From: an archaeon | GTDB taxonomy: Archaea; Iainarchaeota; Iainarchaeia; Iainarchaeales; CSSED10-239 | Assembly (NCBI GenBank): GCA_041677685.1 | Contig: JBAYPN010000011.1 | Span: forward strand, 1 to 24,623 | Length of the DNA: 24,623 nucleotides | Direction: 5' to 3' | Part shown: piece after piece, positions 1,419 through 17,139 of the stretch | Layout of the letters: each line of letters begins with the position of its first letter | Position numbering within the stretch: position 1 is the stretch's first letter | Translations under genes and position numbers: made by a program | Notes under the pieces: generated by a model | Databases searched by the model: none | What the model was told of the DNA's origin: nothing | Seen by the model: only the letters and a program-made list of their open reading frames with translations

Positions 1419-2162
1419 TTAAACCTTTAAAAAAAGCTTCTCAAAATTATTATGCATTGTTTTTTTCACATCTTCTAAATTTAGATCATACTCTCTACAA
1501 TATTGTTTGTAAACCTCAATTATTGACAAAGGCGTTGTTTTTTCTCCATTTAAGTAAATTGGATAATCAGTCTCAAGTAATATTTGGTTTTTGTATTTAT
1601 TTACATCTATTGTGTTTTTATTCAAAGCCTTCTGTGTTAGGTAATACCCTCTTTTCAAAGCTTCAAGTTTCTCTTCCTCTTGCCCAGTAAACCAATGTAG
1701 TAAGACTTTTAATTTTGAATAATTTTTTAGGATCTCTAGGGTTGGCTTAGTTGCATATCTTGTATGAAGTATTACAGGCTTTTTTAAACTTTGTGCAATC
1801 TCTAATTGCCTTTCAAGTAATTGTTTTTGTTCAAGTCTTTTATTTTTATCTTTTGTTATCTTATAATCTAAACCAATTTCTCCAATTGCCAAAGCCCTTG
1901 AAAAATCAATTTTCTCTAAATCTTTAAGAGTTTCTTCTAATTTTCTATTTAAAACATAATCTGGGTAAAGTCCATATGCAAAATAAATATTTTTAATATT
2001 CTTTTTTCTAATCTCTTCTAATCTTAAATAACTATTCATGTCAACTGAGCAGGTGATGGCTTTTAGAGCATTTTCCTTAAAAGTTTCCATCAAATAATCA
2101 CTATAAAGCAAATCATAATGGCAATGTGCATCAAGATAGTAATTATATTTGTTTTTGTCCAT
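1419..2162 (-). CDS. tatD: TatD-family metal-dependent hydrolase/DNase
   Basis: Ordered TatD signature: DAHCHYD, AIGEIGLDY, VILHTR, LHWF, ETDYP. Confidence 0.85.
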   Translation of the reverse strand: MDKNKYNYYLDAHCHYDLLYSDYLMETFKENALKAITCSVDMNSYLRLEEIRKKNIKNIYFAYGLYPDYVLNRKLEETLKDLEKIDFSRALAIGEIGLDYKITKDKNKRLEQKQLLERQLEIAQSLKKPVILHTRYATKPTLEILKNYSKLKVLLHWFTGQEEEKLEALKRGYYLTQKALNKNTIDVNKYKNQILLETDYPIYLNGEKTTPLSIIEVYKQYCREYDLNLEDVKKTMHNNFEKLFLKV

Positions 2163-2784: not shown

Positions 2785-3891
2785 ATGCCAGCAAATGTAT
2801 CCTTTGAATTTTCAATAGCTCAAAAAAAATATGATGACGCTAAGACTGATGAAGAAAAGATTGTTGCTTTACAGGACATGGTTTCTAAGGCTCCTGGGCA
2901 TAAAGGTGCAGAAAATCTAAGAAAAGATCTTTCAAGAAAATTATCTTCTTTAAAAAACAAAATAGAAAAACAAGCTTTAACAAATGCAAAAAGATCTGGT
3001 AACACCATAAACATAAAAAAAGAAGGTGCTGGGCAAGTTGTTATTGTTGGTCTTGCAAACACAGGGAAGAGTACTTTTCTTTCTGAGTTTACAAACTCTA
3101 AACCCTTAATAGCCCCTTATCCTTATTCTACAACCAAACCAGAAGTTGGAATTTTGAATTATGGTGGTGCTTTAATTCAATTGGTTGAACTTCCTTCTTT
3201 TTTAGAGAATCATGATTTAACTTCTCAAATTTATTCTATGATTAGGACAGCTGACCTTTGTATATTGATAATAAAAAATGGTTTGATTTCAGAGTTAGAA
3301 ACATTAATAAAAATAATTGAATCAAAAGATGTTTTTATAACTAAAAAGAAACCAAAAATTAGTTTTACAAAAAGTGATTTTTTAGGAATATCTTTTATAA
3401 ATGAACAAAATCTTTTAGTTCCAAAAGCACAAGCAATTGATTTTTTAAGATCTTCAGGATTTAGATCTCAAAATATTATTTTAAATCAGAAAACCACAAT
3501 GGAAGATCTCTTGTTGTTAGTTAATCCAAGAGCCTCTTTTGTACCAACAATTATTGTCTCCATGCCCTTTGCAAGAAATATTAAAAAAACAAAGTACAAA
3601 GATTTAGATGTTTTTGACTTTTCTCAAAAAGAAGAAATTATAGAAAAAATATTTGAGCTTTTGGAAAAGGTAATTGTTTACACAAAAAAACCTGGACAAA
3701 AAGCAGATAAAACAGAGCCTTTAGTTTTAAAAAAAGGAGAAACAATTGTTGATGCTGCAAAAATAATTCATAAGACAATTTATAAAAATCTAAAGTCTGC
3801 AAAAGTGTGGGGTTCTACAAAATTTCCTGGACAAGTTGTTTCTAAAAAATATGTTTTAAAGAACCATGATGTTGTTGAGTTTAATGTTTAA
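2785..3891 (+). CDS. DRG/OBG-like GTPase with C-terminal TGS domain
   Basis: N-terminal helical region, G1 GLANTGKST, G3-like LVELPSF, and a C-terminal TGS-like segment (VYTKKPGQK...PLVLKKGETIVDAAKIIHK...AKVWG). This is the architecture of archaeal/eukaryotic DRG proteins. Confidence 0.8.
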   Translation: MPANVSFEFSIAQKKYDDAKTDEEKIVALQDMVSKAPGHKGAENLRKDLSRKLSSLKNKIEKQALTNAKRSGNTINIKKEGAGQVVIVGLANTGKSTFLSEFTNSKPLIAPYPYSTTKPEVGILNYGGALIQLVELPSFLENHDLTSQIYSMIRTADLCILIIKNGLISELETLIKIIESKDVFITKKKPKISFTKSDFLGISFINEQNLLVPKAQAIDFLRSSGFRSQNIILNQKTTMEDLLLLVNPRASFVPTIIVSMPFARNIKKTKYKDLDVFDFSQKEEIIEKIFELLEKVIVYTKKPGQKADKTEPLVLKKGETIVDAAKIIHKTIYKNLKSAKVWGSTKFPGQVVSKKYVLKNHDVVEFNV

Positions 3892-3960
3892 AACGAAACA
3901 AATAAAAAGAAAACATAAGATATACTTTATTAGATAAATATATTTAATATATGAGAAACT

Positions 3961-4845
3961 ATGGCTTTTTCAAAAAATCCAAAAGAAATAATTGAATTAA
4001 GTTTAGAGGAAAAACTATATCTTTTATTTTTGCCTTTAACTAGAGAAATTACCTCTAAAAGCTTTGAACATAAATTAGAGCAAGCAGACATACCTCTAGA
4101 CATGGATGTTTATTTAGCAAAGAATTTATTTTTTGCAGTGTTTGTCTCTTTTTTGGTTTTAATTTTTGGAATAATTTTGATTGTGATGTCTCCAGGGATT
4201 ATTTCTTTTGGAACTCTTTTAATTATTTTTTTTGGTGTGTTTTTTGCTTACGTAGTTTACACTATAATTAATCCCTACATGGTTGTCGGAACAAAGGTAA
4301 ACAGTATTAAAGCAAACCTGCCATTAGTTATCTTAGGGATGTCATCTGTTGCAGAATCAGGAGCACCACCAGCATCCATTTTTTCAACATCAACTGTTAA
4401 AGATAAAAGTCAATATGTAAATAAAGAATTTTCAAAAATTGTATATTACATAGACTCTCTAGGGATTTCTTTGTTAGAAGCAATTGATCTAGTTGCAAAT
4501 AAAACACCATCCTTTGAGCTTAAAAAATTTTTAATGGATTTAAAATCAAATATTGAGTCAGGTGGAGATCTTTCTGACTTTATGTCTAAAAAAGCATCCC
4601 AGGCTAAATTCCAGTATGATCTTTTACTTGATAATCAAAATAAAAAAGCAGAGATGTTTGGTGACATCTATTCTGCTGTTGTAATTGCAGGACCATTATT
4701 TTTATTTTCAGGAGTTATGCTTTTGGGAATGGTTGGTGGTGGCATTGCTGGAATAAGTATAAGTGCTTTATTAACTTTAGGTGTTTTTGTTTTAGTGCCT
4801 ATAATGAATATAATATTTTTAATTGTAATGAATTTATTTCAATAA
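3961..4845 (+). CDS. Type II secretion system F-domain membrane protein (FlaJ/TadC/PilC-like platform, half 1)
   Basis: N- and C-terminal TM bundles flank a cytoplasmic helical domain (LPLVILGMSSVAESGAPPASIF...LLEAIDLVANKTPSFELKKFLMDLKSNIESGGDLSDFM) typical of T2SSF domains. Confidence 0.75.
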   Translation: MAFSKNPKEIIELSLEEKLYLLFLPLTREITSKSFEHKLEQADIPLDMDVYLAKNLFFAVFVSFLVLIFGIILIVMSPGIISFGTLLIIFFGVFFAYVVYTIINPYMVVGTKVNSIKANLPLVILGMSSVAESGAPPASIFSTSTVKDKSQYVNKEFSKIVYYIDSLGISLLEAIDLVANKTPSFELKKFLMDLKSNIESGGDLSDFMSKKASQAKFQYDLLLDNQNKKAEMFGDIYSAVVIAGPLFLFSGVMLLGMVGGGIAGISISALLTLGVFVLVPIMNIIFLIVMNLFQ

Positions 4846-4866
4846 AGGAGAATATGAGGAATTATT

Positions 4867-5715
4867 TTGGATTTGGATTTAAAATTAAATTTAAGTGATA
4901 AGCAAAAGTTTTTTCTAGACTATGCTGTAAAAGGTTTAATTGGTAGTATAATTGCTTTTGTATTATTGTATAACACAAAGATCTTAATATTTTCTTTTTT
5001 TCCTCTACTTGTAGCAATTGGTTTAGCTGCAAAAATCTATACTGCGAGAATAAAGTCTTATGAAAGAAATTTGTTTGTTTTTTTAGATGACCTTAAAGAT
5101 CTTTTACAAGGTGGTATGAATATTGTTACTGCTGTTGAGATTTCTACAACTCATGATTACGGGGCATTAAATGAAAAGATTAGAAGACTTGCTGCACAAG
5201 TAAAGATTGGGGTTTCTTTTGATAAAGCGCTTTCTGATATTTTTGGAGAAATTGATAGTCCTATTTACAAGCAAGTAATTCAAATTATTTCAGAAACTAC
5301 AAAAATTGGAGGAAGTATAATTAAGATATTTTCATCTATTTCAAGCTATGTTAGGACCCTAAACGACATGGTTGATCAAAGAAAATCAAAAACCTTCTCT
5401 ACTGTTTTTTCAAGTTATTTTATGTTTTTTGTTTTTATTGCAATTATTTTAATAATTCAGATTATCTTTTTACCAATGCTTAGTGGGGAAGGTGTGTCTA
5501 TGAGTGGGGAAGGGGCAAGTCAAGTAAATGCTTTGGCAGATGTTGATTTTAACAGTTATTTTTTATATTTAATTTTAATTCAAGGATTTTTTGCAGGTCC
5601 AATAATTGGTAAGATTTCAGAAGGAAATGCAATTGCAGGTGTTAAGCATTCAATTATTTTAATTAGTGTTTCTGTGCCAATATATGTTTTGGTGTCTTTG
5701 TTGTTTATTGGGTAA
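4867..5715 (+). CDS. Type II secretion system F-domain membrane protein (FlaJ/TadB/PilC-like platform, half 2)
   Basis: A second T2SSF-like domain (LDDLKDLLQGGMNIVTAVEIST...VSFDKALSDIFGEIDSPIYKQVIQIISETTKIGGSI) followed by TM helices. TTG start 21 nt after the previous stop; AAGGAG lies upstream. The exact start is uncertain. Confidence 0.7.
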   Translation: MDLDLKLNLSDKQKFFLDYAVKGLIGSIIAFVLLYNTKILIFSFFPLLVAIGLAAKIYTARIKSYERNLFVFLDDLKDLLQGGMNIVTAVEISTTHDYGALNEKIRRLAAQVKIGVSFDKALSDIFGEIDSPIYKQVIQIISETTKIGGSIIKIFSSISSYVRTLNDMVDQRKSKTFSTVFSSYFMFFVFIAIILIIQIIFLPMLSGEGVSMSGEGASQVNALADVDFNSYFLYLILIQGFFAGPIIGKISEGNAIAGVKHSIILISVSVPIYVLVSLLFIG

Positions 5716-5730
5716 AGGATTAAAGGTTAT

Positions 5731-5783
5731 AGAAATTAAGTTTAAGTTGTAGAGAAATTAAGTTTAAGTTGTAGAGAAATTAA
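5731..5783. repeat. 22-bp tandem repeat (agaaattaagtttaagttgtag), 2 perfect copies plus a 9-nt partial third
   Basis: 5731-5752 and 5753-5774 are identical, and 5775-5783 repeats the first 9 nt. It lies between the platform genes and pilin 1. Confidence 0.9.
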
Positions 5784-5845
5784 AGAGAATTTGTGGAAAG
5801 TAACCTAAATTGGAAATAAGAACTTAATTTTTTAAAGAAGTAAGA

Positions 5846-5853
5846 TTTATAAA
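5846..5853 (+). promoter_or_regulatory. Candidate TATA box for pilin gene 1
   Basis: TTTATAAA matches the archaeal TATA consensus. It would place a transcription start near 5878-5882, just upstream of the ATG candidates at 5907 and 5919. Confidence 0.35.
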
Positions 5854-5918
5854 AGTATAGGTAATATATTTAATATAATTTGGAAATATTGTTTCCTAAA
5901 AAATATATGTTGATAAAA

Positions 5919-6389
5919 ATGTTTGTTATAAAAAGTCAAAGAGGGTTATCTCCATTAATTGCAACAATCTTGTTGGTTGCAGTTGCTTTATCGTTAGCTG
6001 GGATTTTGTATTCTTGGTCATCCCAAAATGCAAAAGAAACAACTGGTAATTTAACTGACACAACTAATGAATGGATCGATTGTAGTTCAATTGATATATA
6101 CATTGATTATGGGTGTACATATCATGAGACAAATGGAATTAACTTTATACTTTATGATAAGTCAACAGTGGAAATTGATGATAATATTACATTGACTGTT
6201 ATTGATGCCAATAACACTGTTAGAAGTGCAAGTTTTGCTCCTAACTTTGTAGGTAATGCCATGGCTATTAACAATAATGTAATTACAAATGATTCAGATT
6301 TTCAAAATTTAGTAAAGCCTTTAAAAAGGGTGTCTGTGCAAGTTGACTCTTGTCCAGACAGAGTAGCTTATGTTACAAAATGTAATTGA
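5919..6389 (+). CDS. Archaeal type IV pilin-like protein (class III signal peptide, flagellin-N-terminal-like domain), paralog 1
   Basis: MFVIKSQRG|LSPLIATILLVAVALSLAGIL is a short basic leader followed by the conserved hydrophobic N-terminus. It has four Cys in the same relative positions as paralogs 2 and 3. Alternative starts are 5880 (TTG) and 5907 (ATG). Confidence 0.8.
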   Translation: MFVIKSQRGLSPLIATILLVAVALSLAGILYSWSSQNAKETTGNLTDTTNEWIDCSSIDIYIDYGCTYHETNGINFILYDKSTVEIDDNITLTVIDANNTVRSASFAPNFVGNAMAINNNVITNDSDFQNLVKPLKRVSVQVDSCPDRVAYVTKCN

Positions 6390-6448
6390 AAGTAAATTAA
6401 AAATATTTGAACAAAATAAAATAAATTAAAATGAATAGGTGATATGAA

Positions 6449-6931
6449 ATGAAAAGAAAAGCAATCTCTCCATTAATTGCAACAATTTTGTTAGTTGTTG
6501 TTGCTGTTGCTTTAATTGCAATAGTTTTGACATGGGGTAAAACATTTACACAAGATAGTTTAGCTGAGACTACTGACATTATTGATAGTAGTTGTTCAGG
6601 TGCACATTTAAATGTCTCAAATTGTAAAGTAGGTACTGATGGTAATATAACATTCTATGTTAAAAATATAGGAACAACCTATACATTCCCTTTAACTGAT
6701 GAATTTATGATTGACATTACTACAGATGATAGTAAAGATTCAACTAACCTAAATCTTACAAATTATGCAACTTGGGCAGGATTAGGTCCAGGCCAGATGG
6801 TTCAAGTAGATATGGATTTATCTAATTTAGGCGGTAAAGATATTAGTTCAGGAACATTTTTTGATGTTACTGTAAGATCTTCAGTTTGTCCAACAGATGC
6901 TGTTGCTACAGCAAAGAATTGTCACAGATGA
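6449..6931 (+). CDS. Archaeal type IV pilin-like protein, paralog 2
   Basis: MKRKA|ISPLIATILLVVVAVALIAIVL; AGGTGA sits 7 nt upstream of the ATG. Cys pairs occur at SSCSGAHLNVSNC and VCPTDAVATAKNC. Confidence 0.85.
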   Translation: MKRKAISPLIATILLVVVAVALIAIVLTWGKTFTQDSLAETTDIIDSSCSGAHLNVSNCKVGTDGNITFYVKNIGTTYTFPLTDEFMIDITTDDSKDSTNLNLTNYATWAGLGPGQMVQVDMDLSNLGGKDISSGTFFDVTVRSSVCPTDAVATAKNCHR

Positions 6932-7010
6932 TGTGACTGTTCTTTTTTTACTTTTTTTATTTTAAAAAAGTATTTTTTATCTTTAATAAATAAATTAAAA
7001 AAGAGAATCT

Positions 7011-7457
7011 ATGAAAAGAAAAGCAATTTCTCCATTAATCGCAACAATCTTGTTAATAGTTGTTGCTGTTGTCTTAGTTGGAATATTAGTATCTTGGGGG
7101 CAGAATTTTGTGCAAAAAGGTACTACTGATGCTGACAACTCAATTGACACCACTTGTACAGGTGCTGGAATAAACATTATTACTTGTGATTATAATAGTT
7201 CTGGTCAAGAAATCAAATTAACAATTGTAAACTCAGGAAATGTAAGATTTAATTCTGATAACACTTTTGATGTTCTTTTAATTGATTCAGATAACAATTT
7301 AGATAACTCTAATCTAAATGTTTTGTCTTCAAGAGAATTTGATATAGGAGAATCAGAAGCAATTACAATTTCAGATTATTCCGGAAGAGGTCCTGTAAAG
7401 CTAGAGATTAGAAATTCACAATGTCCTGGTTATTTTTGGGCAACAAGATGTAGTTAG
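7011..7457 (+). CDS. Archaeal type IV pilin-like protein, paralog 3
   Basis: MKRKA|ISPLIATILLIVVAVVLVGILV; its 5' nucleotides are nearly identical to paralog 2. Cys pairs occur at TTCTGAGINIITC and QCPGYFWATRC. Confidence 0.85.
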   Translation: MKRKAISPLIATILLIVVAVVLVGILVSWGQNFVQKGTTDADNSIDTTCTGAGINIITCDYNSSGQEIKLTIVNSGNVRFNSDNTFDVLLIDSDNNLDNSNLNVLSSREFDIGESEAITISDYSGRGPVKLEIRNSQCPGYFWATRCS

Positions 7458-10537: not shown

Positions 10538-10708
10538 TTAGTTAGCATTCATTCTTCTATAATCAAGTTCACTCAAAACATCTATAAGCATATTATTATA
10601 TTTCTTAGTCATTGCCTCAAGTTCCATTCTCTTAAGCAAAGTATGTTTGATTTTAAGTAAAAAGTTTGTTTGTAGATTCCCAATTTCTTTTTTATACATC
10701 TTGTGCAT
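10538..10708 (-). CDS. Small helical protein (56 aa), not in the ORF track
   Basis: My translation is MHKMYKKEIGNLQTNFLLKIKHTLLKRMELEAMTKKYNNMLIDVLSELDYRRMNAN*. ATG at 10706-10708 is preceded by AGGTGG (reverse complement of 10713-10718) with a 4-nt spacer. Stop TAA at 10538-10540. Confidence 0.45.
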   Translation of the reverse strand: MHKMYKKEIGNLQTNFLLKIKHTLLKRMELEAMTKKYNNMLIDVLSELDYRRMNAN

Positions 10709-10754
10709 ATAACCACCTATTTTTAAGTTTTTTTAAATTGTATATATATTATGC

Positions 10755-10801
10755 ACTTTATAAGCCTAGTTAATTTCTAAGGGGGGTAGCTTGCCGAGAA
10801 A
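10755..10801 (+). repeat. Left arm of the 47-bp inverted repeat (30-bp perfect core aatttctaaggggggtagcttgccgagaaa)
   Basis: 10772-10801 is the exact reverse complement of 14630-14659. Identity is 44/47 over 10755-10801 versus 14630-14676. Confidence 0.95.
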
Positions 10802-10884
10802 GATATAATTTAGAAAATTTCAAAAAAGATGTTAGAAAAAATGATAGAGAACAGTTATCAAAAAATAAAAATATTAATTTCTTT

Positions 10885-11178
10885 TTAGTTTTTAGAATAA
10901 TATTTTTGTTTTGGACTTGTGGGTTTATTTGGTTCTGTTAACAATAATAAGCTTTTATTTAGTAAAGGTTTTAATAATTCTGATCTAAAATAACCTCTGT
11001 TTTTTAATTTTAAATAAGCTTGTATCTCATCTATAGTTTTAGGTGTTTTACAGAATTTAAGTATTTTAGCTTGAGGGGTAGCTTACGGGGTGATAAGAAT
11101 AATAATCTTAAAAACATCTTTTTCTATTAATTCTGGTACTCCATCTGAGTAGTTTTTCACATACTTAGTTAAATTTCT
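10885..11178 (-). pseudogene. C-terminal remnant of a wHTH regulator of the AlbA_2/'RecG-like C-terminal' (Schlafen-like ATPase/Fic-associated) type
   Basis: The minus-strand frame reads RNLTKYVKNYSDGVPELIEKDVFKIIILITP*ATPQAKILKFCKTPKTIDEIQAYLKLKNRGYFRSELLKPLLNKSLLLLTEPNKPTSPKQKYYSKN*. The tail (ILxFC...EI...L.LK.R..FR...L.PL....LL..T.P.KPxSPxQKY) is the characteristic C-terminus of that family. It has an in-frame TAA at 11083-11085, no start codon, and lacks roughly the N-terminal three quarters of the protein. Confidence 0.6.
11073..11094 (+). repeat. Degenerate third copy of the G-run repeat core
   Basis: gaggggtagcttacggggtg matches the ggggggtagcttgccgagaa core at 14 of 22 aligned positions and shares the 10-mer ggggtagctt. 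It has the same orientation as the left arm. Confidence 0.5.
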
Positions 11179-11291
11179 TTATATCTACTTTTATTAAATC
11201 TACTATCCTTTTTTGAATTTATTAGTTATAAAATAGTTTTTTTTCTATAAAAACCAATTTATTTTTAAAATAAACCATACATAATAGAGTT

Positions 11292-12383
11292 ATGGGATCT
11301 ATTAAAAAGAATATATTTTCAGACACAGATATTGAAAAATCAATATTTAAAGATGAAAGTGTTTTCTATCCTGATTACCACCCACAAAATATACTAGCAA
11401 GAGATTCCCAAATTAAAAACCTAACCTATTACTTAAAACCAATCATTTCTAAAAAAAAAGCAAACAACATATTAATCTCAGGACCTCCAGGAACAGGAAA
11501 AACCTTAATTACAAATTATGTTTTAAATCAACTAACAGATTTTTCAAACAAAGTAAAATTTATATATATTAATTGCATACAAGACAACACAAGATTTGCA
11601 GTACTATCAAAACTAGTAAGCTTCTACAACGGAGTTTTACCAAGAAGAGGACTTGCAATTGATGAAGTATGGCAAAGATTAACAGAACTTTTCTCAAAAT
11701 CAGAAATCTTCCCAATAATTGTTCTAGATGAAATTGATAAAATGGATCTAGATGATTCTTCAAAGCTTTTGTATGATCTTTCAAGATTTTATATTAATTC
11801 AAAGTATTTTACTTTAATTCTAATTACCAACCACAAACCCTTTATTCTAAAATTAGATACAAGAACACAAAGTTCATTATTCTTAAATGAAATTGATTTT
11901 TTAAAATATAAACCAACAGAGATTAAACAAATTTTAAAAGAAAGAATTGAATTTGGATTAATTGACAATTGCTTATCCCAAGATCTTTTAGGCTATGTTT
12001 GTGGTTATTCAGCTTCTAGAGGAGGAGATGCAAGAATTGCAATTGACTTAATCTATAAATCTGCAAAGGCTTCAGAAAAGAGAGGTGAATTAGTTATTTT
12101 AAAAGAAGTCTTATTAGATTCTTCAAAATTAGTAGATTCTGTTAAGCTTTTTGAAAAGATAGAATGTCTAAATCAAAGAGAACAAGAGATTTTAAATTTA
12201 ATTGAAGAACCAATAACTACCAAAGACTTATATCTAAATACAAAGATTCCTCAAAGAACAGTAAGAAACATAATTGATGCTTTAGAAAAATTAGAACTAA
12301 TTTCTGTAGATTCTTTAAGTCAAGGGAAAGGAAAGACAAGAGTAATTAAATTAAGATTTGATAAAAGCCTTTTAAAGAATTAA
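11292..12383 (+). CDS. cdc6: Orc1/Cdc6 replication initiator
   Basis: Walker A ISGPPGTGKTL, Walker B IVLDEIDKM, sensor region LILITN, an arginine-rich lid (SRGGDARIAIDL) and a C-terminal winged helix (PQRTVRNIIDALEKLELI). Confidence 0.9.
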   Translation: MGSIKKNIFSDTDIEKSIFKDESVFYPDYHPQNILARDSQIKNLTYYLKPIISKKKANNILISGPPGTGKTLITNYVLNQLTDFSNKVKFIYINCIQDNTRFAVLSKLVSFYNGVLPRRGLAIDEVWQRLTELFSKSEIFPIIVLDEIDKMDLDDSSKLLYDLSRFYINSKYFTLILITNHKPFILKLDTRTQSSLFLNEIDFLKYKPTEIKQILKERIEFGLIDNCLSQDLLGYVCGYSASRGGDARIAIDLIYKSAKASEKRGELVILKEVLLDSSKLVDSVKLFEKIECLNQREQEILNLIEEPITTKDLYLNTKIPQRTVRNIIDALEKLELISVDSLSQGKGKTRVIKLRFDKSLLKN

Positions 12384-12538
12384 AATTAATTACATAAAAA
12401 TAAAAAAAGAATAAGATAAAAATAATATCAAAAATAAATAAAAGAAAATCAAATTAAAAAAAGAATAAGAAACAAAATTAAATATAAATAAAAATTAAAA
12501 AGAATAAAAAAATAAAAAAAGAGAATAAAGAAAAGAAC
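12384..12538. repeat. A-rich low-complexity tract with 16-bp direct repeats
   Basis: Almost only A, with sparse G and T, on the + strand. taaaaaaagaataaga occurs at 12401-12416 and 12455-12470, with degenerate copies near 12497-12529. On the minus strand it gives multiple oligo-T runs immediately after the pcna stop. Confidence 0.85.
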
Positions 12539-13291
12539 CTAATCACTATCTACTCTTGGTGCTAAAAAATATCTAATTGCTGCAGAACCAATTGTGTAAT
12601 CTAGTTCTAAAGGCATGTCATCTTTCAATTTAATTGTAAGCATTGTCTTTGCATTCTTAATCATATTTTGTAAATAATCCAAAGGATACATTGCTTTTGC
12701 TTTATTTCCAGAGATGATTAGATTTTTAGAATCTGCTTCAATTTCTTGCTTAAACTTACCTTTACTACTTTGAGTTTCTAAAAATAATTTATTATCTTCA
12801 ACTCTAAAGCTTAGATGAGAACTAAACAAAGAAGCATCTTTAATACCTCCAAGAAGTTGGTCAGGCATGATCTGAATAGTTACATCAAATTGTATTTTTG
12901 GAAGTGGTTGTTCTTGTTTAGAAACATCAATTAAAGGTATACTAAAGCTTCTTTTTGAACTTCCAATAAGTTCTATTAATATAATTGATCTATCTTCTTT
13001 TATTTCTAAAACTAACTTCTCATCTGCTGAGGAGTGAGATAAAATCTGTAAAAGATTATTAATATTTATACCAAATGTTATTTTGTCTTCATCTTGAGAA
13101 GTATCAATTACAAATTCTTCAAAAGCATCTTTTGGCATAACAAAATCAACTAAACTAATTTGGCTAGGATCTGTTGCCCTTAGGTAAATTTTATCTTTAT
13201 CTATAGTAAATAATCCTTCATTTATTAAAACTCCAATTGCATCTATGCTTTTATGGAATTCTTTTGTATCTTTAATTACTAACTTAATCAT
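12539..13291 (-). CDS. pcn: DNA polymerase sliding clamp PCNA
   Basis: 250 aa with a typical N-terminus (..KEFHKSIDAIGVLINEGLFTIDKDKIYLRATDPSQISLVDFVMPKDAFEEF) and C-terminal YFLAPRVD. Confidence 0.9.
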   Translation of the reverse strand: MIKLVIKDTKEFHKSIDAIGVLINEGLFTIDKDKIYLRATDPSQISLVDFVMPKDAFEEFVIDTSQDEDKITFGININNLLQILSHSSADEKLVLEIKEDRSIILIELIGSSKRSFSIPLIDVSKQEQPLPKIQFDVTIQIMPDQLLGGIKDASLFSSHLSFRVEDNKLFLETQSSKGKFKQEIEADSKNLIISGNKAKAMYPLDYLQNMIKNAKTMLTIKLKDDMPLELDYTIGSAAIRYFLAPRVDSD

Positions 13292-13439
13292 TTAAAAATC
13301 CCCCTTTTTTTTGTTTTCTTAATTAATTTTTTTAATTTTAATAATTATTTATTATTTTATTAGTATATTAGGTATAAAATGGTTTTTAAATAAGTGTTTT
13401 TTTAAATTAAAGAAAGAAACTTTTAATTAAAGAAAGAAA

Positions 13440-13961
13440 TTAAATAATTATAGTTATATATACCCAACCAATTATTAAAAAAAACCTAAAAATAAAGGAT
13501 TGATCTAAAACCTCAAACAACCATGCTAAGATTAATAAGATTAAAGTGATTGGGAAAATTAAGATTTTAAAGATCCAACTAACTATACTTTGTTTTTTTG
13601 TGTAGCTGTTTTTTATAGAGGAATATACATTTTTTGAATCTTGTTTGCTTGGAACACTAAAAAACAGTGAAGAGATTGCAATCCAAACAAGAATGACAAT
13701 AAATATTATTTTTAATTCTATTCTTTTAATAACAATTGAGATAATTATTGCAAGTAAGAGATTTATAAAAAAAGGAGCCATGGAGATAAGTATATTTTTG
13801 TAGTTTCTAGAAGCTTCATGCACAACATATCCTCCTGAACTTCCAATCAATTTAAATTTTTTAATTTTTACTCCTAGAAGTAGGCAGGCTAACATATGTG
13901 AGAGTTCATGGGTTGTAATTCCAATAAAGAAGAATTTGTTTAAGAAATTATTTAAGTTCAT
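13440..13961 (-). CDS. Polytopic membrane protein with HExxH motif (DUF3267/M50-like putative zincin)
   Basis: FIGITTHELSHMLACLLLG followed by at least four hydrophobic helices. It starts 3 nt after the pilin-like gene's stop. Confidence 0.6.
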   Translation of the reverse strand: MNLNNFLNKFFFIGITTHELSHMLACLLLGVKIKKFKLIGSSGGYVVHEASRNYKNILISMAPFFINLLLAIIISIVIKRIELKIIFIVILVWIAISSLFFSVPSKQDSKNVYSSIKNSYTKKQSIVSWIFKILIFPITLILLILAWLFEVLDQSFIFRFFLIIGWVYITIII

Positions 13962-13964
13962 TAT

Positions 13965-14375
13965 TTATTTTTCCAAAGTTTTATAGTCTAAGATTATTTT
14001 GTTGTTGCTCTTTTCAATAGTTATTGTTGCTGATGTTTTTATTTTTTTAAATTTTAAGACTACTATGTTATTTGAGGTAACTATGTATTCTTTATTTTTA
14101 TTATTAATTTTTAAAGTATTTTGTGTGGTTGTTTGAAAGTTCCATTCTGTTTGCGGGTTAATTGTTAGAGTGGTTATTGCTTTTGGTTGTAGTTTAAGGA
14201 GGTTTAAGGTATTTTGTAGGTCTTTATGTGTGTTTTTAAGTTCAAGGTTATCTATTGCTGTTATGTTTTTAGAGTAGAGGTTTGTGATTTGGTAGATAAG
14301 TATACTTAGAATGGAGATGACTGCTAATGCTATTAATAGATATTCTAAGCTAATTTGTGCTTTTGAACTAATCAC
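13965..14375 (-). CDS. Pilin-like protein (class III signal, Gln+1/Glu+5)
   Basis: GTG start; VISSKA|QISLEYLLIALAVISILSILI. It begins 2 nt after the upstream pilin's stop. Confidence 0.65.
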   Translation of the reverse strand: MISSKAQISLEYLLIALAVISILSILIYQITNLYSKNITAIDNLELKNTHKDLQNTLNLLKLQPKAITTLTINPQTEWNFQTTTQNTLKINNKNKEYIVTSNNIVVLKFKKIKTSATITIEKSNNKIILDYKTLEK

Positions 14376-14377
14376 AA

Positions 14378-14575
14378 CTAATCAATCTTTTCAATCTGCT
14401 TAAAGACATCATTTGATTTTTTATCCACTGCTTTATTTGCTTTGTTTGTTGTTTTTTGTAATTGTGTAACAACAACTAAGACTATTGCAATGATTGCAGC
14501 AATTAAGATTATCATTTCAGCAGATAATTGTGCTTTATTTTCTGCGTATAGTTGTTTAAATCTATTTAGTTTCAT
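14378..14575 (-). CDS. Small type IV pilin (Methanococcus EpdE-like class III signal peptide family)
   Basis: 65 aa: MKLNRFKQLYAENKA|QLSAEMIILIAAIIAIVLVVV followed by a short polar tail. This is the architecture of the small archaeal major pilins. Confidence 0.75.
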   Translation of the reverse strand: MKLNRFKQLYAENKAQLSAEMIILIAAIIAIVLVVVTQLQKTTNKANKAVDKKSNDVFKQIEKID

Positions 14576-14597
14576 AATGTATATTATTGAAAGCTAA

Positions 14598-14607
14598 TAT
14601 TTATAAA
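14598..14607 (-). promoter_or_regulatory. Candidate TATA box for the small-pilin operon
   Basis: The minus strand reads TTTATAAATA, beginning 33 nt upstream of ATG 14575, which is consistent with a leaderless or very short-leader mRNA. Confidence 0.35.
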
Positions 14608-14629
14608 TTGCTTTTTTTAAGAAAAAGTT

Positions 14630-14676
14630 TTTCTCGGCAAGCTACCCCCCTTAGAAATTGACTAGGGTTACAAAGT
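14630..14676 (-). repeat. Right arm of the 47-bp inverted repeat
   Basis: This is the reverse complement of 10755-10801: 30 bp perfect and 44/47 overall. Confidence 0.95.
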
Positions 14677-14835: not shown

Positions 14836-17139
14836 ATGATCAAATCAATTTCTTTACAAAATTGGAAGACCCACCAAAAAACCAAACTCTCCTTCAAGAA
14901 AGGAACTAACATTATTCTTGGAACCATTGGCTCAGGAAAGTCAAGTGTTATTGATGGTATCTGTTATGCTCTTTATGGAAACTTTCCTTCTCTTCAAAAT
15001 AGAAAAGTAATTCTTACAGAAAACATAATGTTTAAACCCGCAAAAATGGAGTCTTCAAAAATAGTTTTAGAACTTAATTTCAACAATAACAACTACACAA
15101 TTGAAAGAGAAATCTACCTAAGCTCAAAAGCAAACTATGCAAAACTTTACCAAGACCAAAAATTAATAGCTGGTCCAAAACAAACAGATGTTAATGAAAA
15201 GGTTTCAGAAATTCTAGGAATTGATTATAATCTGTTTACAAAGATTGTTTATTCAGAACAAAACGAACTAGATTACTTTTTAAAAATACAACCTTCTAAA
15301 AGAAAAGAAAAGTTTGATGAGTTATTTGGAATCATCCACCTAAAAGAAATTAAAGAAGACACAAAGAAACTAGAAAATCTAGTCTCTATTGAGATTGACA
15401 AACAACAATCTCTTTTTAACCAAATAATTTCACAACTAAAAGACATTGACATAAACCTACTAAATTCAAAAAAAGAAGATGCAGAAAAAAACCTAATAAC
15501 AATTTCAAAAGACCTCCAAGATTTTAAGATTAAAAAAGAACAATTAGAAAAAGAAGTTAAGATTCTAAAATCAAAAAAACAAAACTTTGAAAACCTAACC
15601 CTACAACTTAATATCAATAAATCTAAATTACAAGAAATAGACCAAAAAATAAACACTTACTTAGAAAAATACCCTTCCCTTTCTTCTAACTTTCAAGAAC
15701 AATTACGTCTAAAGGAACAACAACTACTAGATAAAGAAAAAGAATTTCTTCTTTTCTCAAACAAAAACAAAGATTTAGAAATTAAAAATAAAGATCTAAA
15801 CAACAAATTATCTTTTTATAAAGAACAACTTCAAGTTAATCAAGATAATGTTACCTCTCTTCTAAAAAAACTAACTCCAACAACCAAATCCTCAGACATT
15901 TTAAAAACAGAACTTGAAAACTTAAACAAAGATCTAGAAACAATTAAGACTACCCAAATTAATCTTAACTCAATAACCCAAGACTTAAACAAAGCAATCT
16001 CAGAACTTAAAAAAGGCTTTGCAAATTGTCCTGTCTGCGATTCAAAACTAAACCCTGAACAAGTTACTCAGAAACTTGAAGAAAAAGAACTAAAGTCCTC
16101 TTTAGTCTTTAAACAATTACAAGACATAAAAGATAATCTTCTTTCTCTAAATAAAAAAAAACAAGAGCTTGAGTCTTTAGACAAACAATTACAAGTTAAT
16201 AACACAATCAACCAAGAGATAAACACTCTTAAAGAAAAGAGTTATAGTTTTGAAGAAAAACTAAAAGACCTAAACACCTTGATTGTTAGTTTAGAAAAAC
16301 CAAAAGACCTTTCCTCTCTAGATAAAGAAATCCAAACCATAAAAGAAGAAATTTTTTCTCTAAAAAGTTATTCTGATTTTTTAAAAAATAAAGAAGAAGT
16401 TACTTTTAAAATAAACAATTTTTCTCAAAGTCTAAAGGACCTTAACTTTAATGAAGACACATACATCTCTTTACTTTCTGAATTTAAAAACACAGAATCA
16501 AAGTTCTTAAACCTTAATGATAAAAAAGAGCTTTTCTCAAACATTCTTTTGGATGTTAATAAAAACATAAACACTTACTTTCTTTTAGATTCTCAAAAAC
16601 AAAAGTTAACTAAAACAATATCTGCCTTAGAACTTAAAAAAACAGATCTTTCCTACTTTTCTAAGTCCTTAGAGGTTAGCCAACATCAACTAAGAAAAGT
16701 CTTGATCGACAACATCAATCAAGCCCTAAACATCATCTGGCCAAAAGTCTATGCTTACAATGATTATAAGTCAGCAAGACTACAAGCAAATAATGACTAT
16801 ATCTTAGAGGTTTTAAGTCTAGAAGGAGAATGGTACAGAGTAGAAGGTATACTTTCAGGTGGAGAAAGGAGTTGTGCTGCTTTATCAATAAGGGTGGCAA
16901 TTGCTTTAGTCTTAACAGAGAAGTTAGGTCTATTAATTCTTGATGAACCCACTCATAATCTTGATGAGAAATCAGTTCAATCTTTAGCCACAATTCTAGA
17001 AAAAGAACTTCCTGACCTTGTAGATCAAGTCTTTATTGTTACTCATGATTCTAAGCTTTTAGAAACAGTAAATTCCTCAAAATTTATAATAAACAGAGAT
17101 AAAGAAAATGATGGCGTTTCTTTAGTTGATGAAAGTTAG
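14836..17139 (+). CDS. rad50: Rad50-type SMC-like ATPase with zinc hook
   Basis: Walker A GTIGSGKSS, a coiled coil of about 550 aa, a central CPVC hook (16027-16038), signature LSGGERS, Walker B LLILDEPT and the His-loop VTHD. Confidence 0.85.
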   Translation: MIKSISLQNWKTHQKTKLSFKKGTNIILGTIGSGKSSVIDGICYALYGNFPSLQNRKVILTENIMFKPAKMESSKIVLELNFNNNNYTIEREIYLSSKANYAKLYQDQKLIAGPKQTDVNEKVSEILGIDYNLFTKIVYSEQNELDYFLKIQPSKRKEKFDELFGIIHLKEIKEDTKKLENLVSIEIDKQQSLFNQIISQLKDIDINLLNSKKEDAEKNLITISKDLQDFKIKKEQLEKEVKILKSKKQNFENLTLQLNINKSKLQEIDQKINTYLEKYPSLSSNFQEQLRLKEQQLLDKEKEFLLFSNKNKDLEIKNKDLNNKLSFYKEQLQVNQDNVTSLLKKLTPTTKSSDILKTELENLNKDLETIKTTQINLNSITQDLNKAISELKKGFANCPVCDSKLNPEQVTQKLEEKELKSSLVFKQLQDIKDNLLSLNKKKQELESLDKQLQVNNTINQEINTLKEKSYSFEEKLKDLNTLIVSLEKPKDLSSLDKEIQTIKEEIFSLKSYSDFLKNKEEVTFKINNFSQSLKDLNFNEDTYISLLSEFKNTESKFLNLNDKKELFSNILLDVNKNINTYFLLDSQKQKLTKTISALELKKTDLSYFSKSLEVSQHQLRKVLIDNINQALNIIWPKVYAYNDYKSARLQANNDYILEVLSLEGEWYRVEGILSGGERSCAALSIRVAIALVLTEKLGLLILDEPTHNLDEKSVQSLATILEKELPDLVDQVFIVTHDSKLLETVNSSKFIINRDKENDGVSLVDES

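Follow-up and report, generated by a model that had tools for sequence, protein, structure and literature searches.

A conserved polar module beside orc1/cdc6 in an Iainarchaeota archaeon, most likely an initiator-binding box

Why should the gene of a replication initiator lie between the two arms of a long inverted repeat? This question is raised by a 24,623-nt stretch of DNA (contig JBAYPN010000011.1; the whole stretch is called the window here) from a DPANN archaeon of the Iainarchaeota/Diapherotrites group. In the window, two nearly identical 47-bp arms enclose orc1/cdc6, pcna, a membrane peptidase gene and two pilin genes. A preliminary description of this DNA had proposed that the arms are origin recognition boxes (ORBs) bound by Orc1/Cdc6, or the ends of a mobile or invertible segment, or outward-facing promoter or operator modules. 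Comparison with related genomes indicates that the arms are copies of a conserved, family-wide signal, which is most likely an initiator-binding box and not the end of a mobile or invertible segment. Judging from sequence comparison, we give a probability of roughly 0.45 to the reading that the module is a lineage-specific ORB-type site for Orc1/Cdc6 that is also used near the promoters of repair genes.

Positions 14630-14659 are the exact reverse complement of positions 10772-10801 (AATTTCTAAGGGGGGTAGCTTGCCGAGAAA, 30 bp without a mismatch). Over the complete arms, 44 of 47 positions are identical, and the mismatches lie at arm positions 6, 10 and 17. The pair is the longest inverted repeat of the window, extends to 85 nt at 76% identity and has an inner distance of 3,828 nt. 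When the window was simulated 100 times with a first-order Markov model, the longest perfect inverted repeat never exceeded 24 nt (mean 17.7), and a search for the 20-mer core with up to three mismatches found the two arm sites only, with 0.00 expected from 100 shuffles. The DNA has ~27% GC, and the outer flanks of both arms are AT-rich runs. The preliminary description was correct about the repeat, which exceeds all shuffles and simulations, about the AT runs outside each arm, which are seen in both arm sequences, and about the genes between and outside the arms, with which Pfam annotation agrees. Near-identical contigs were found in NCBI (GCA_028690785.1), ENA and Logan.

Each arm represents a polar module of ~47 bp that is shared by Forterrea-like Iainarchaeota, in which a TATA-like box is followed by a T-run, a G-run and then TAGCT(G/T)GCCGAGAAA. 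In relatives, ATATAT follows the TATA-like box, the T-run ends in C, and the G-run leads into TAGCTGGCCGAGAAA or a variant. The conserved core is ~20 nt long and non-palindromic. Both window arms read TAGCTT, and all other species read TAGCTG or TAGTTT. The module of a sister species is identical to the left arm at 42 and to the right arm at 43 of 47 positions, and in all three pairs similarity drops to near background in the flanks. Because the cores differ at only 3-5 of 47 positions while the sequence outside them is near background, comparison of the copies argues for selection on each of them. Copies were scored with a position weight matrix (PWM) that was built from the same instances that it scores, with a threshold of 14. 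A further same-orientation copy had been described upstream of cdc6. This sequence indeed shares GGGGTAGCTT (at 11075) with the module, but it is without the CCGAGAAA half, scores below the threshold and adjoins a Fic-like remnant within an insertion of ~450 bp, and it is doubtful that it is a true third copy.

Which arm is the older one was revealed by the relatives. A Cdc6 profile scan with one genome per species gave 25 loci (L numbers below denote loci). Where cdc6 is 50-62% identical to that of the window, the gene order is orf127-orf142-orf170-orf56 on the minus strand, cdc6 on the plus strand, pcna-M50-pilin-pilin on the minus strand and rad50-priS-gins on the plus strand, and the order and orientation of the enclosed block are kept in seven relatives (L006, L007, L008, L010, L011, L012, L026). 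In the relatives that carry orf56, the spacer between orf56 and cdc6 is 130-200 bp long and contains exactly one module, which points toward cdc6. This cdc6-side module is present in at least 12 relatives of the same identity range, in constant orientation and at the same position relative to orf56, and it is the only conserved block of the spacer besides the two promoters. Its distance to cdc6 is 55-95 nt in the sister species and in these relatives. The spacer of the sister species (cdc6 90% and orf56 89% identical) is 160 bp long, and its single module, CCTTATAACCCTAGTCAATTTCTAAGGGGGGTAGTTTGCCGAGAAAG, is followed 23 nt further on by the cdc6 promoter block. In L021, the module stays with orf56 although cdc6 is 1.4 kb distant. 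No module was found in the pilin-rad50 spacers of L006, L007, L010, L011, L012 and L026 or in the part of the L008 spacer that was covered. From these spacers of the relatives and the sister species, the left arm is judged to be the orthologous copy at the ancestral position, and the right arm to be an additional one that was seen in none of the six other species read at the pilin-rad50 spacer. We also considered that the right arm had been copied together with the cdc6 promoter, and rejected this because the pilin-proximal promoter matches the pilin promoters of relatives.

The module is not confined to the cdc6 locus. A scan of a metagenome collection for the 18-mer GGGTAGCTKGCCGAGAAA yielded 39 loci, nine of which are low-GC relatives; the other 30 are unrelated, being high-GC chance matches or an apparently eukaryotic repeat. 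Two of the nine are orf56-cdc6 spacers (L036, L056), and five are spacers of radA/PPDK-like genes. In L043, which is on the same 332-kb contig as L036, the module lies between a sulfatase-like gene and a 482-aa open reading frame (ORF) for which no family or structure match was found. In L050, it lies near a RelE/YoeB-like toxin-antitoxin pair, and a weaker second copy is located upstream of a Cas4/AddB-like nuclease gene. The two L050 copies (1382-1405 and 2114-2137, minus strand) have the same orientation and flank the toxin pair, 730 bp apart. Between radA and PPDK, the module was present in 11 of 11 distinct spacers (L034, L047, L070-L074, L080, L081, L087, L088), and it always points away from radA.

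Copies within one genome co-vary. The metagenome-assembled genome CAZQEL01 has CCTCTTGTCCGAG at both its cdc6 locus (L012) and its radA locus (L074), the cores of L036 and L043 on their common contig are identical, and both copies of L050 start with GGAGGG. The copy number is low, since ~343 kb of related low-GC loci carry copies in these few spacers alone and the exact 18-mer matches once or twice per contig in contigs of 110-698 kb; in this DNA, the module is thus not a dispersed element of the kind of miniature inverted-repeat transposable elements (MITEs) or repetitive extragenic palindromes. The 18-mer GGGTAGCTTGCCGAGAAA was also observed in one unit of a ~150-nt tandem repeat with 40-44% GC and kelch-like ORF fragments (L033, L035, L037, L062, L066, L068). 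These kelch-associated matches are unrelated chance matches, apparently eukaryotic, and would mislead a naive copy count.

The resemblance to ORBs is clearest in more distant species. Canonical archaeal ORBs and mini-ORBs have TCCAGTGG as their core. In deeper relatives, the positional homologue of the module reads GGGG..ATTTTC-GGGGGGG-TAGCTG-TCCAGTGC/G, and a TCCAGTGC-type core is found on the cdc6 side in L017, L019 and L021 and on the radA side in L072, L073, L080, L081 and L088. These older variants carry the canonical ORB core TCCAGTG plus the G-run. ORB1 of Pyrococcus furiosus, as used in binding assays, has the structure CCCCCC-AGAGTTTCA-TTTCCACTGGAA, namely a G/C-run, a spacer and a box (PMC1904270). 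Two TCCAGTGGC-type boxes in direct orientation, exactly 28 nt apart, occupy the radA-PPDK spacer in L072 (2880-2935, minus strand) and L073 (2875-2930, minus strand). In the distant L025 (cdc6 34% identical, 48% GC), the inverted boxes TGCCGGTGCGGAAAA / TTTTTTGCACCGGCA lie 39 nt apart (3838-3935) together with a 5' G-run (GGGGG-TGGT-TGCCGGTGCGGAAAA) and a TTCCACTGCAACC box, all 60-125 nt upstream of cdc6; by its sequence, this layout is a classical-looking archaeal origin.

Like the ORBs of Pyrococcus (ORB1/ORB2) and Sulfolobus (ORB1-3 of oriC1), the module is a polar, non-palindromic sequence of ~20-35 bp in a spacer beside orc1/cdc6, and its G/C-run and KCCR...AAA box are a few bases apart. 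The G6 is 5 nt from the box in both arms, and most relatives have a G-run. The left arm and its orthologues are located in non-coding DNA next to orc1/cdc6, relatives of the window species have the exact TCCAGTG, the distant L025 has an inverted pair beside cdc6, and the copies co-vary with the lineage, as in replicator-initiator pairing. Each ORB is bound by one Orc1 monomer with defined polarity (PMC12141716), and one monomer per module copy would fit because the conserved core is ~20 nt and asymmetric. The synteny is the same in Candidatus Forterrea (L007), for which both cumulative GC skew and the Z-curve put the origin next to this cdc6 (PMC5905446). In the window, GC skew follows gene orientation, and 24.6 kb is too short for a skew turn. 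In Thermococcales, cdc6 is flanked on either side by ORB clusters within 5 kb (PMC1904270), so such an arrangement of initiator sites has a precedent. Thus, the ORB-like idea of the preliminary description survives in kind, as a conserved family with its ancestral copy beside cdc6 and with older variants that have TCCAGTG and a G-run. Its extension, in which the two arms act as one bracket (two half-origins or a loop), finds no comparative support, because the six species read at the pilin-rad50 spacer have no right arm and the module is also found between radA and PPDK and in other promoter regions.

Several observations weigh against an ORB-type site. Compared with the ORB consensus (TTCC...GAA, as in TTCCAGTGGAAA), the window arms have TTGCCGAGAAA, which is a loose match; the positionally homologous copies of relatives read TGTCCAGTGG/C, L025 has TTCCACTGCAACC and P. 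furiosus has TTTCCACTGGAA. The core is shortened (CCGAGAAA versus CCAGTGGAAA in ORBs), and the spacer between run and box is 4-6 nt in the module versus 9 nt in ORBs. The G-run is on the strand opposite to that of Pyrococcus ORBs in most members, so that the module usually has G where Pyrococcus has C, and in L011 and L074 a C-run replaces it. In the window and its close relatives, there are no inverted boxes around a short AT-rich unwinding element: 3.8 kb and five genes separate the window arms, and close relatives have one copy per cdc6 spacer and no inverted pair, which was seen in the distant L025 only. In Sulfolobus oriC1, both inverted boxes around the unwinding element are required (PMC12141716). 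Six species that keep cdc6-pcna synteny but have no orf56 beside cdc6 (L013, L014, L015, L020, L022, L023) also lack the module in the region upstream of cdc6. It is more universal between radA and PPDK, which is not an expected origin site, than beside cdc6, and this second conserved location sets the module apart from the ORBs named above. In its upstream half, the module is similar to an archaeal promoter. The resemblance to ORBs was recognised post hoc.

If the module is nevertheless an ORB-type site, one Orc1/Cdc6 molecule would bind each copy in fixed orientation, in analogy to known ORBs, and would contact the KCCRAG(AAA)/TCCAGTG half and the adjacent G-run. The cdc6-side copy would belong to the origin, where it may take part in origin firing, and to the control region of cdc6. 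The radA-side copy and, in the window species, the copy between the pilin operon and rad50 would be promoter-proximal initiator sites, and in the other divergent promoter spacers the initiator would probably be a regulator or an architectural protein. In the window species, the insertion of ~450 bp now keeps the cdc6-side copy at a distance from cdc6, and a further copy has been fixed upstream of the pilin operon in inverted orientation, with its TATA-like side facing rad50; this right arm lies 55-79 nt upstream of the start codon of pil65. The 3.8-kb inverted repeat would then exist because the extra copy was fixed in this orientation at the pilin-rad50 spacer; the inverted layout would be a by-product of the site of the extra copy and not a functional bracket. 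What is observed directly is the repeat, the orthology, conservation and low copy number of the module, its co-variation within genomes and its continuity with ORB-like boxes.

The module might instead be the operator of a transcription factor other than Orc1/Cdc6 that controls a small regulon of replication and repair genes. Such a regulon would comprise cdc6 and orf56, radA, in the window species rad50 and the pilins, and elsewhere the Cas4/AddB-like nuclease gene, and the right arm would have been recruited to a new spacer. All contexts of the module that were read are divergent promoter spacers (orf56-cdc6, radA-PPDK, pil65-rad50, L043 and L050), four of the five with a replication or repair gene, and its presence at the cdc6 locus tracks orf56, as it is kept in L021 and absent where orf56 is missing. 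There is also a precedent, because the small aCcr factors of Sulfolobales bind the promoters of orc1, gins and radA (PMC13199686). The small conserved orf56 beside the module resembles aCcr1-3 in this respect, but aCcr proteins are ribbon-helix-helix proteins on palindromes, whereas orf56 is modelled as a two-helix hairpin and the module core of ~20 nt is non-palindromic, in contrast to the typical dimeric archaeal operators and to the palindromic aCcr motif (PMC13199686). The start codons that flank the module lie at widely differing distances from it (40 to 190 nt). The obvious candidate for the factor, orf56, is a plain two-helix hairpin without a recognisable DNA-binding fold or significant fold match, and its match to a regulator is marginal (E=0.016); we therefore rejected it as the binder. 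This explanation leaves the continuity with the TCCAGTG ORB-like boxes unaccounted for. We consider a separate operator unlikely, but a serious contender.

The outward promoter or operator modules proposed in the preliminary description agree with the TATA-like box, which is at the spacing of tRNA promoters, and with the constant location in divergent promoter spacers. The geometry, by contrast, is inward, with the TATA-like box outside and the core inside, and rad50 has its own proximal promoter, the right arm being 160 nt away. An ORB-type reading and a regulatory reading are compatible with each other, because a Sulfolobus Orc1 paralog acts at promoters: it binds those of pili and DNA-damage genes (PMC6061795). 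The sites of this Orc1-2, the DNA damage-responsive elements (DDREs), are like the module in being short and promoter-proximal (17-99 nt upstream of starts), with type IV pili (ups) and DNA-transaction genes as targets, and the window arms have AATTTC (ANTTTC) just before the G-run. The likeness is limited, since the DDRE is a hexanucleotide embedded in another 20-bp consensus and ANTTTC is common by chance at 27% GC.

A short RNA gene was considered as well. The module would then be a promoter plus the first ~20 nt of an RNA of ~30-40 nt that starts at the G-run and is present in two or three copies per genome under concerted evolution. The TATA-like box is located 16-20 nt upstream of the G-run, comparable to the TTTATAG that lies 19 nt before the mature 5' end in the tRNA-Cys genes of the family. 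Other features would fit too: the G-run is immediately preceded by a T-rich proximal element and a CAAG-like start, T-runs occur within 10-40 nt downstream in many copies, and copies co-vary within genomes. To the eye, the core is reminiscent of the 5' portion of a class II tRNA, although a partner for the D-stem and a T-arm are missing. Rfam gave no relevant match in the whole window at gathering thresholds or over 10650-11300 with E up to 10, and ARAGORN found no tRNA in the window. RNAalifold predicted 0 pairs on 17 module copies, and the fold z-scores of the putative transcripts of the arms (+1.24 and +0.18) were no better than those of shuffles. There is no conservation downstream of GAGAAA, and TCCAGTGC-type copies have a second G-run where the TATA-like box would be. 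An RNA gene is thus quite improbable.

It is very improbable that the right arm arose neutrally, through a short inverted duplication or gene conversion, and has no function of its own. Its absence from the other species examined and its three differences from the left arm would agree with such an origin. Its identity to the sister module (43/47) is about that to the left arm (44/47), and since core similarity is kept while the sequence just outside is near background, this suggests constraint rather than youth; it also sits in a divergent promoter spacer like all other copies.

We give almost no credence to the proposal of a mobile or invertible 3.9-kb cassette that carries cdc6 and pcna and has the arms as its terminal inverted repeats: the inverted arms with sharp inner boundaries around a gene block, as in transposons, MITEs and invertase segments, the ATATATATTAT string outside both arms and the insertion with the Fic remnant as another sign of rearrangement are outweighed by an enclosed block whose order and orientation are the ancestral ones of seven relatives, none showing a right arm, by Pfam annotation of the ORFs in and around the segment that shows no transposase, integrase or invertase, by a single orientation in five independent assemblies from different sources at 99.9% identity, by the orthology of the left arm to a fixed element of other species, and by the low copy number. 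A viral or plasmid origin was rejected as well, since two pattern scans of IMG/VR gave only high-GC chance matches without related genes.

The features of the window around the arms are collected in Table 1. The orf56 family is lineage-specific (51-64 aa, with a conserved GGTG Shine-Dalgarno sequence; 13 representative clusters among 1.8 billion proteins) and always divergent from the cdc6-side module. AlphaFold2 with an alignment modelled orf56 as the above hairpin with a predicted local distance difference test score (pLDDT) of 90, and the model from the single sequence, one helix, was uninformative. The protein matched no family in Pfam or NCBIfam and had no significant PDB fold match; the marginal regulator match was a profile match to 7kd3_A. 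Only one orc1/cdc6 was seen in the window. To the right of rad50 follow the genes of the primase small subunit (priS) and GINS, both on the plus strand.

The insertion between the left arm and cdc6 was recognised by alignment with the spacer of the sister species (L075), which has 23 nt there. The Fic-like remnant in it points to integration or rearrangement in the presumed origin region itself. A decayed second copy of orf56 was looked for in the enlarged spacer, but none was found there, the Fic-like remnant being found instead. The block directly before the ATG of cdc6 is kept in the sister species and in L009, L011, L012 and L026, and from this conservation it probably acts as the cdc6 promoter.

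Table 1. Location of the module copies and of surrounding features in the window
Feature	Position	Strand	Remarks
orf56 (56 aa)	10538-10708	-	Outside the left arm
Left arm	10755..10801	+	PWM score 37.8; oriented toward cdc6; judged the ancestral-position copy
TATA-like box of left arm, TTTATAAG	10757-10764	+	Followed by the AATTTC T-run
G6 of left arm	10781-10786	+	Core TAGCTTGCCGAGAAA next, 10787-10801
Insertion, ~450 bp	10803..11255		Between left arm and proximal promoter of cdc6
Fic-like C-terminal domain remnant (pseudogene fragment)	10885..11052	-	PF21247, E=2.3e-11 and 6.3e-11
Doubtful partial copy, GAGGGGTAGCTTACGGGGTGAT	11073..11094	+	Only G-run and TAGCTT half in common with the module
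Promoter-like block proximal to cdc6, AATTTATTTTTAAAATAAACCATACATAATAGAGTT	11256..11291	+	Directly before ATG
orc1/cdc6	11292..12383	+	Pfam AAA_22, Cdc6_lid, weak Cdc6_C; homologs named cell division control protein 6
PCNA	12539-13291	-	Pfam
M50B-like HExxH membrane peptidase	13440-13961	-	Pfam
Two pilins, class-III signal	13965-14375 and 14378-14575	-	Pfam
Right arm	14630..14676	-	PWM score 34.9; oriented toward pilin operon; judged an extra copy
TATA-like side of right arm, TTACAAAG on plus strand	14668-14675		Faces rad50
rad50	14836..17139	+	Pfam AAA_23, SMC_N, Rad50_zn_hook; start codon 160 nt from right arm

Two further observations were made in the window. The convergent genes cdc6 and pcna are separated by 155 bp (12384-12538) that form a near-pure A/G tract on the plus strand with A-rich repeats (D1, D5); this tract might unwind easily or serve as a terminator region. 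At 3961-7457, two T2SSF (PilC-like) genes precede a tandem array of three small paralogous genes (169, 160 and 148 aa) that have a common 69-nt block coding for SPLIATILLV-type N-termini, and these are likely an expansion of a pilin or archaellin-like family.

We know of no experimental characterisation of DPANN origins and their recognition sequences in the literature searched. The module offers a concrete and short candidate for this group, 30 bp in the window species and with clear variants in relatives, and its conservation beside radA ties the initiator, or another factor, to recombination genes. A wider proposal, which we regard as rather doubtful, is that in these reduced DPANN genomes one Orc1/Cdc6 with a remodelled ORB both marks the origin and controls recombination and repair genes, with radA as a target everywhere, rad50 and the type IV pilin operon in the window species and the Cas4/AddB-like nuclease gene elsewhere. 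If true, this would be a single-protein version of the division of labour in Sulfolobus between Orc1-1 as initiator and Orc1-2 as damage regulator, and the inward-facing pair that encloses cdc6-pcna would represent a regulatory or looping layout that evolved newly. If Orc1/Cdc6 does not bind the module, it would still be a signal of promoter regions with strong conservation in a phylum about which little is known. If it does, the series from TCCAGTG to the shortened CCGAGAAA, with its co-varying copies, would be a natural case of co-evolution between initiator and replicator, and the family would provide a simple example of an initiator that doubles as a regulator.

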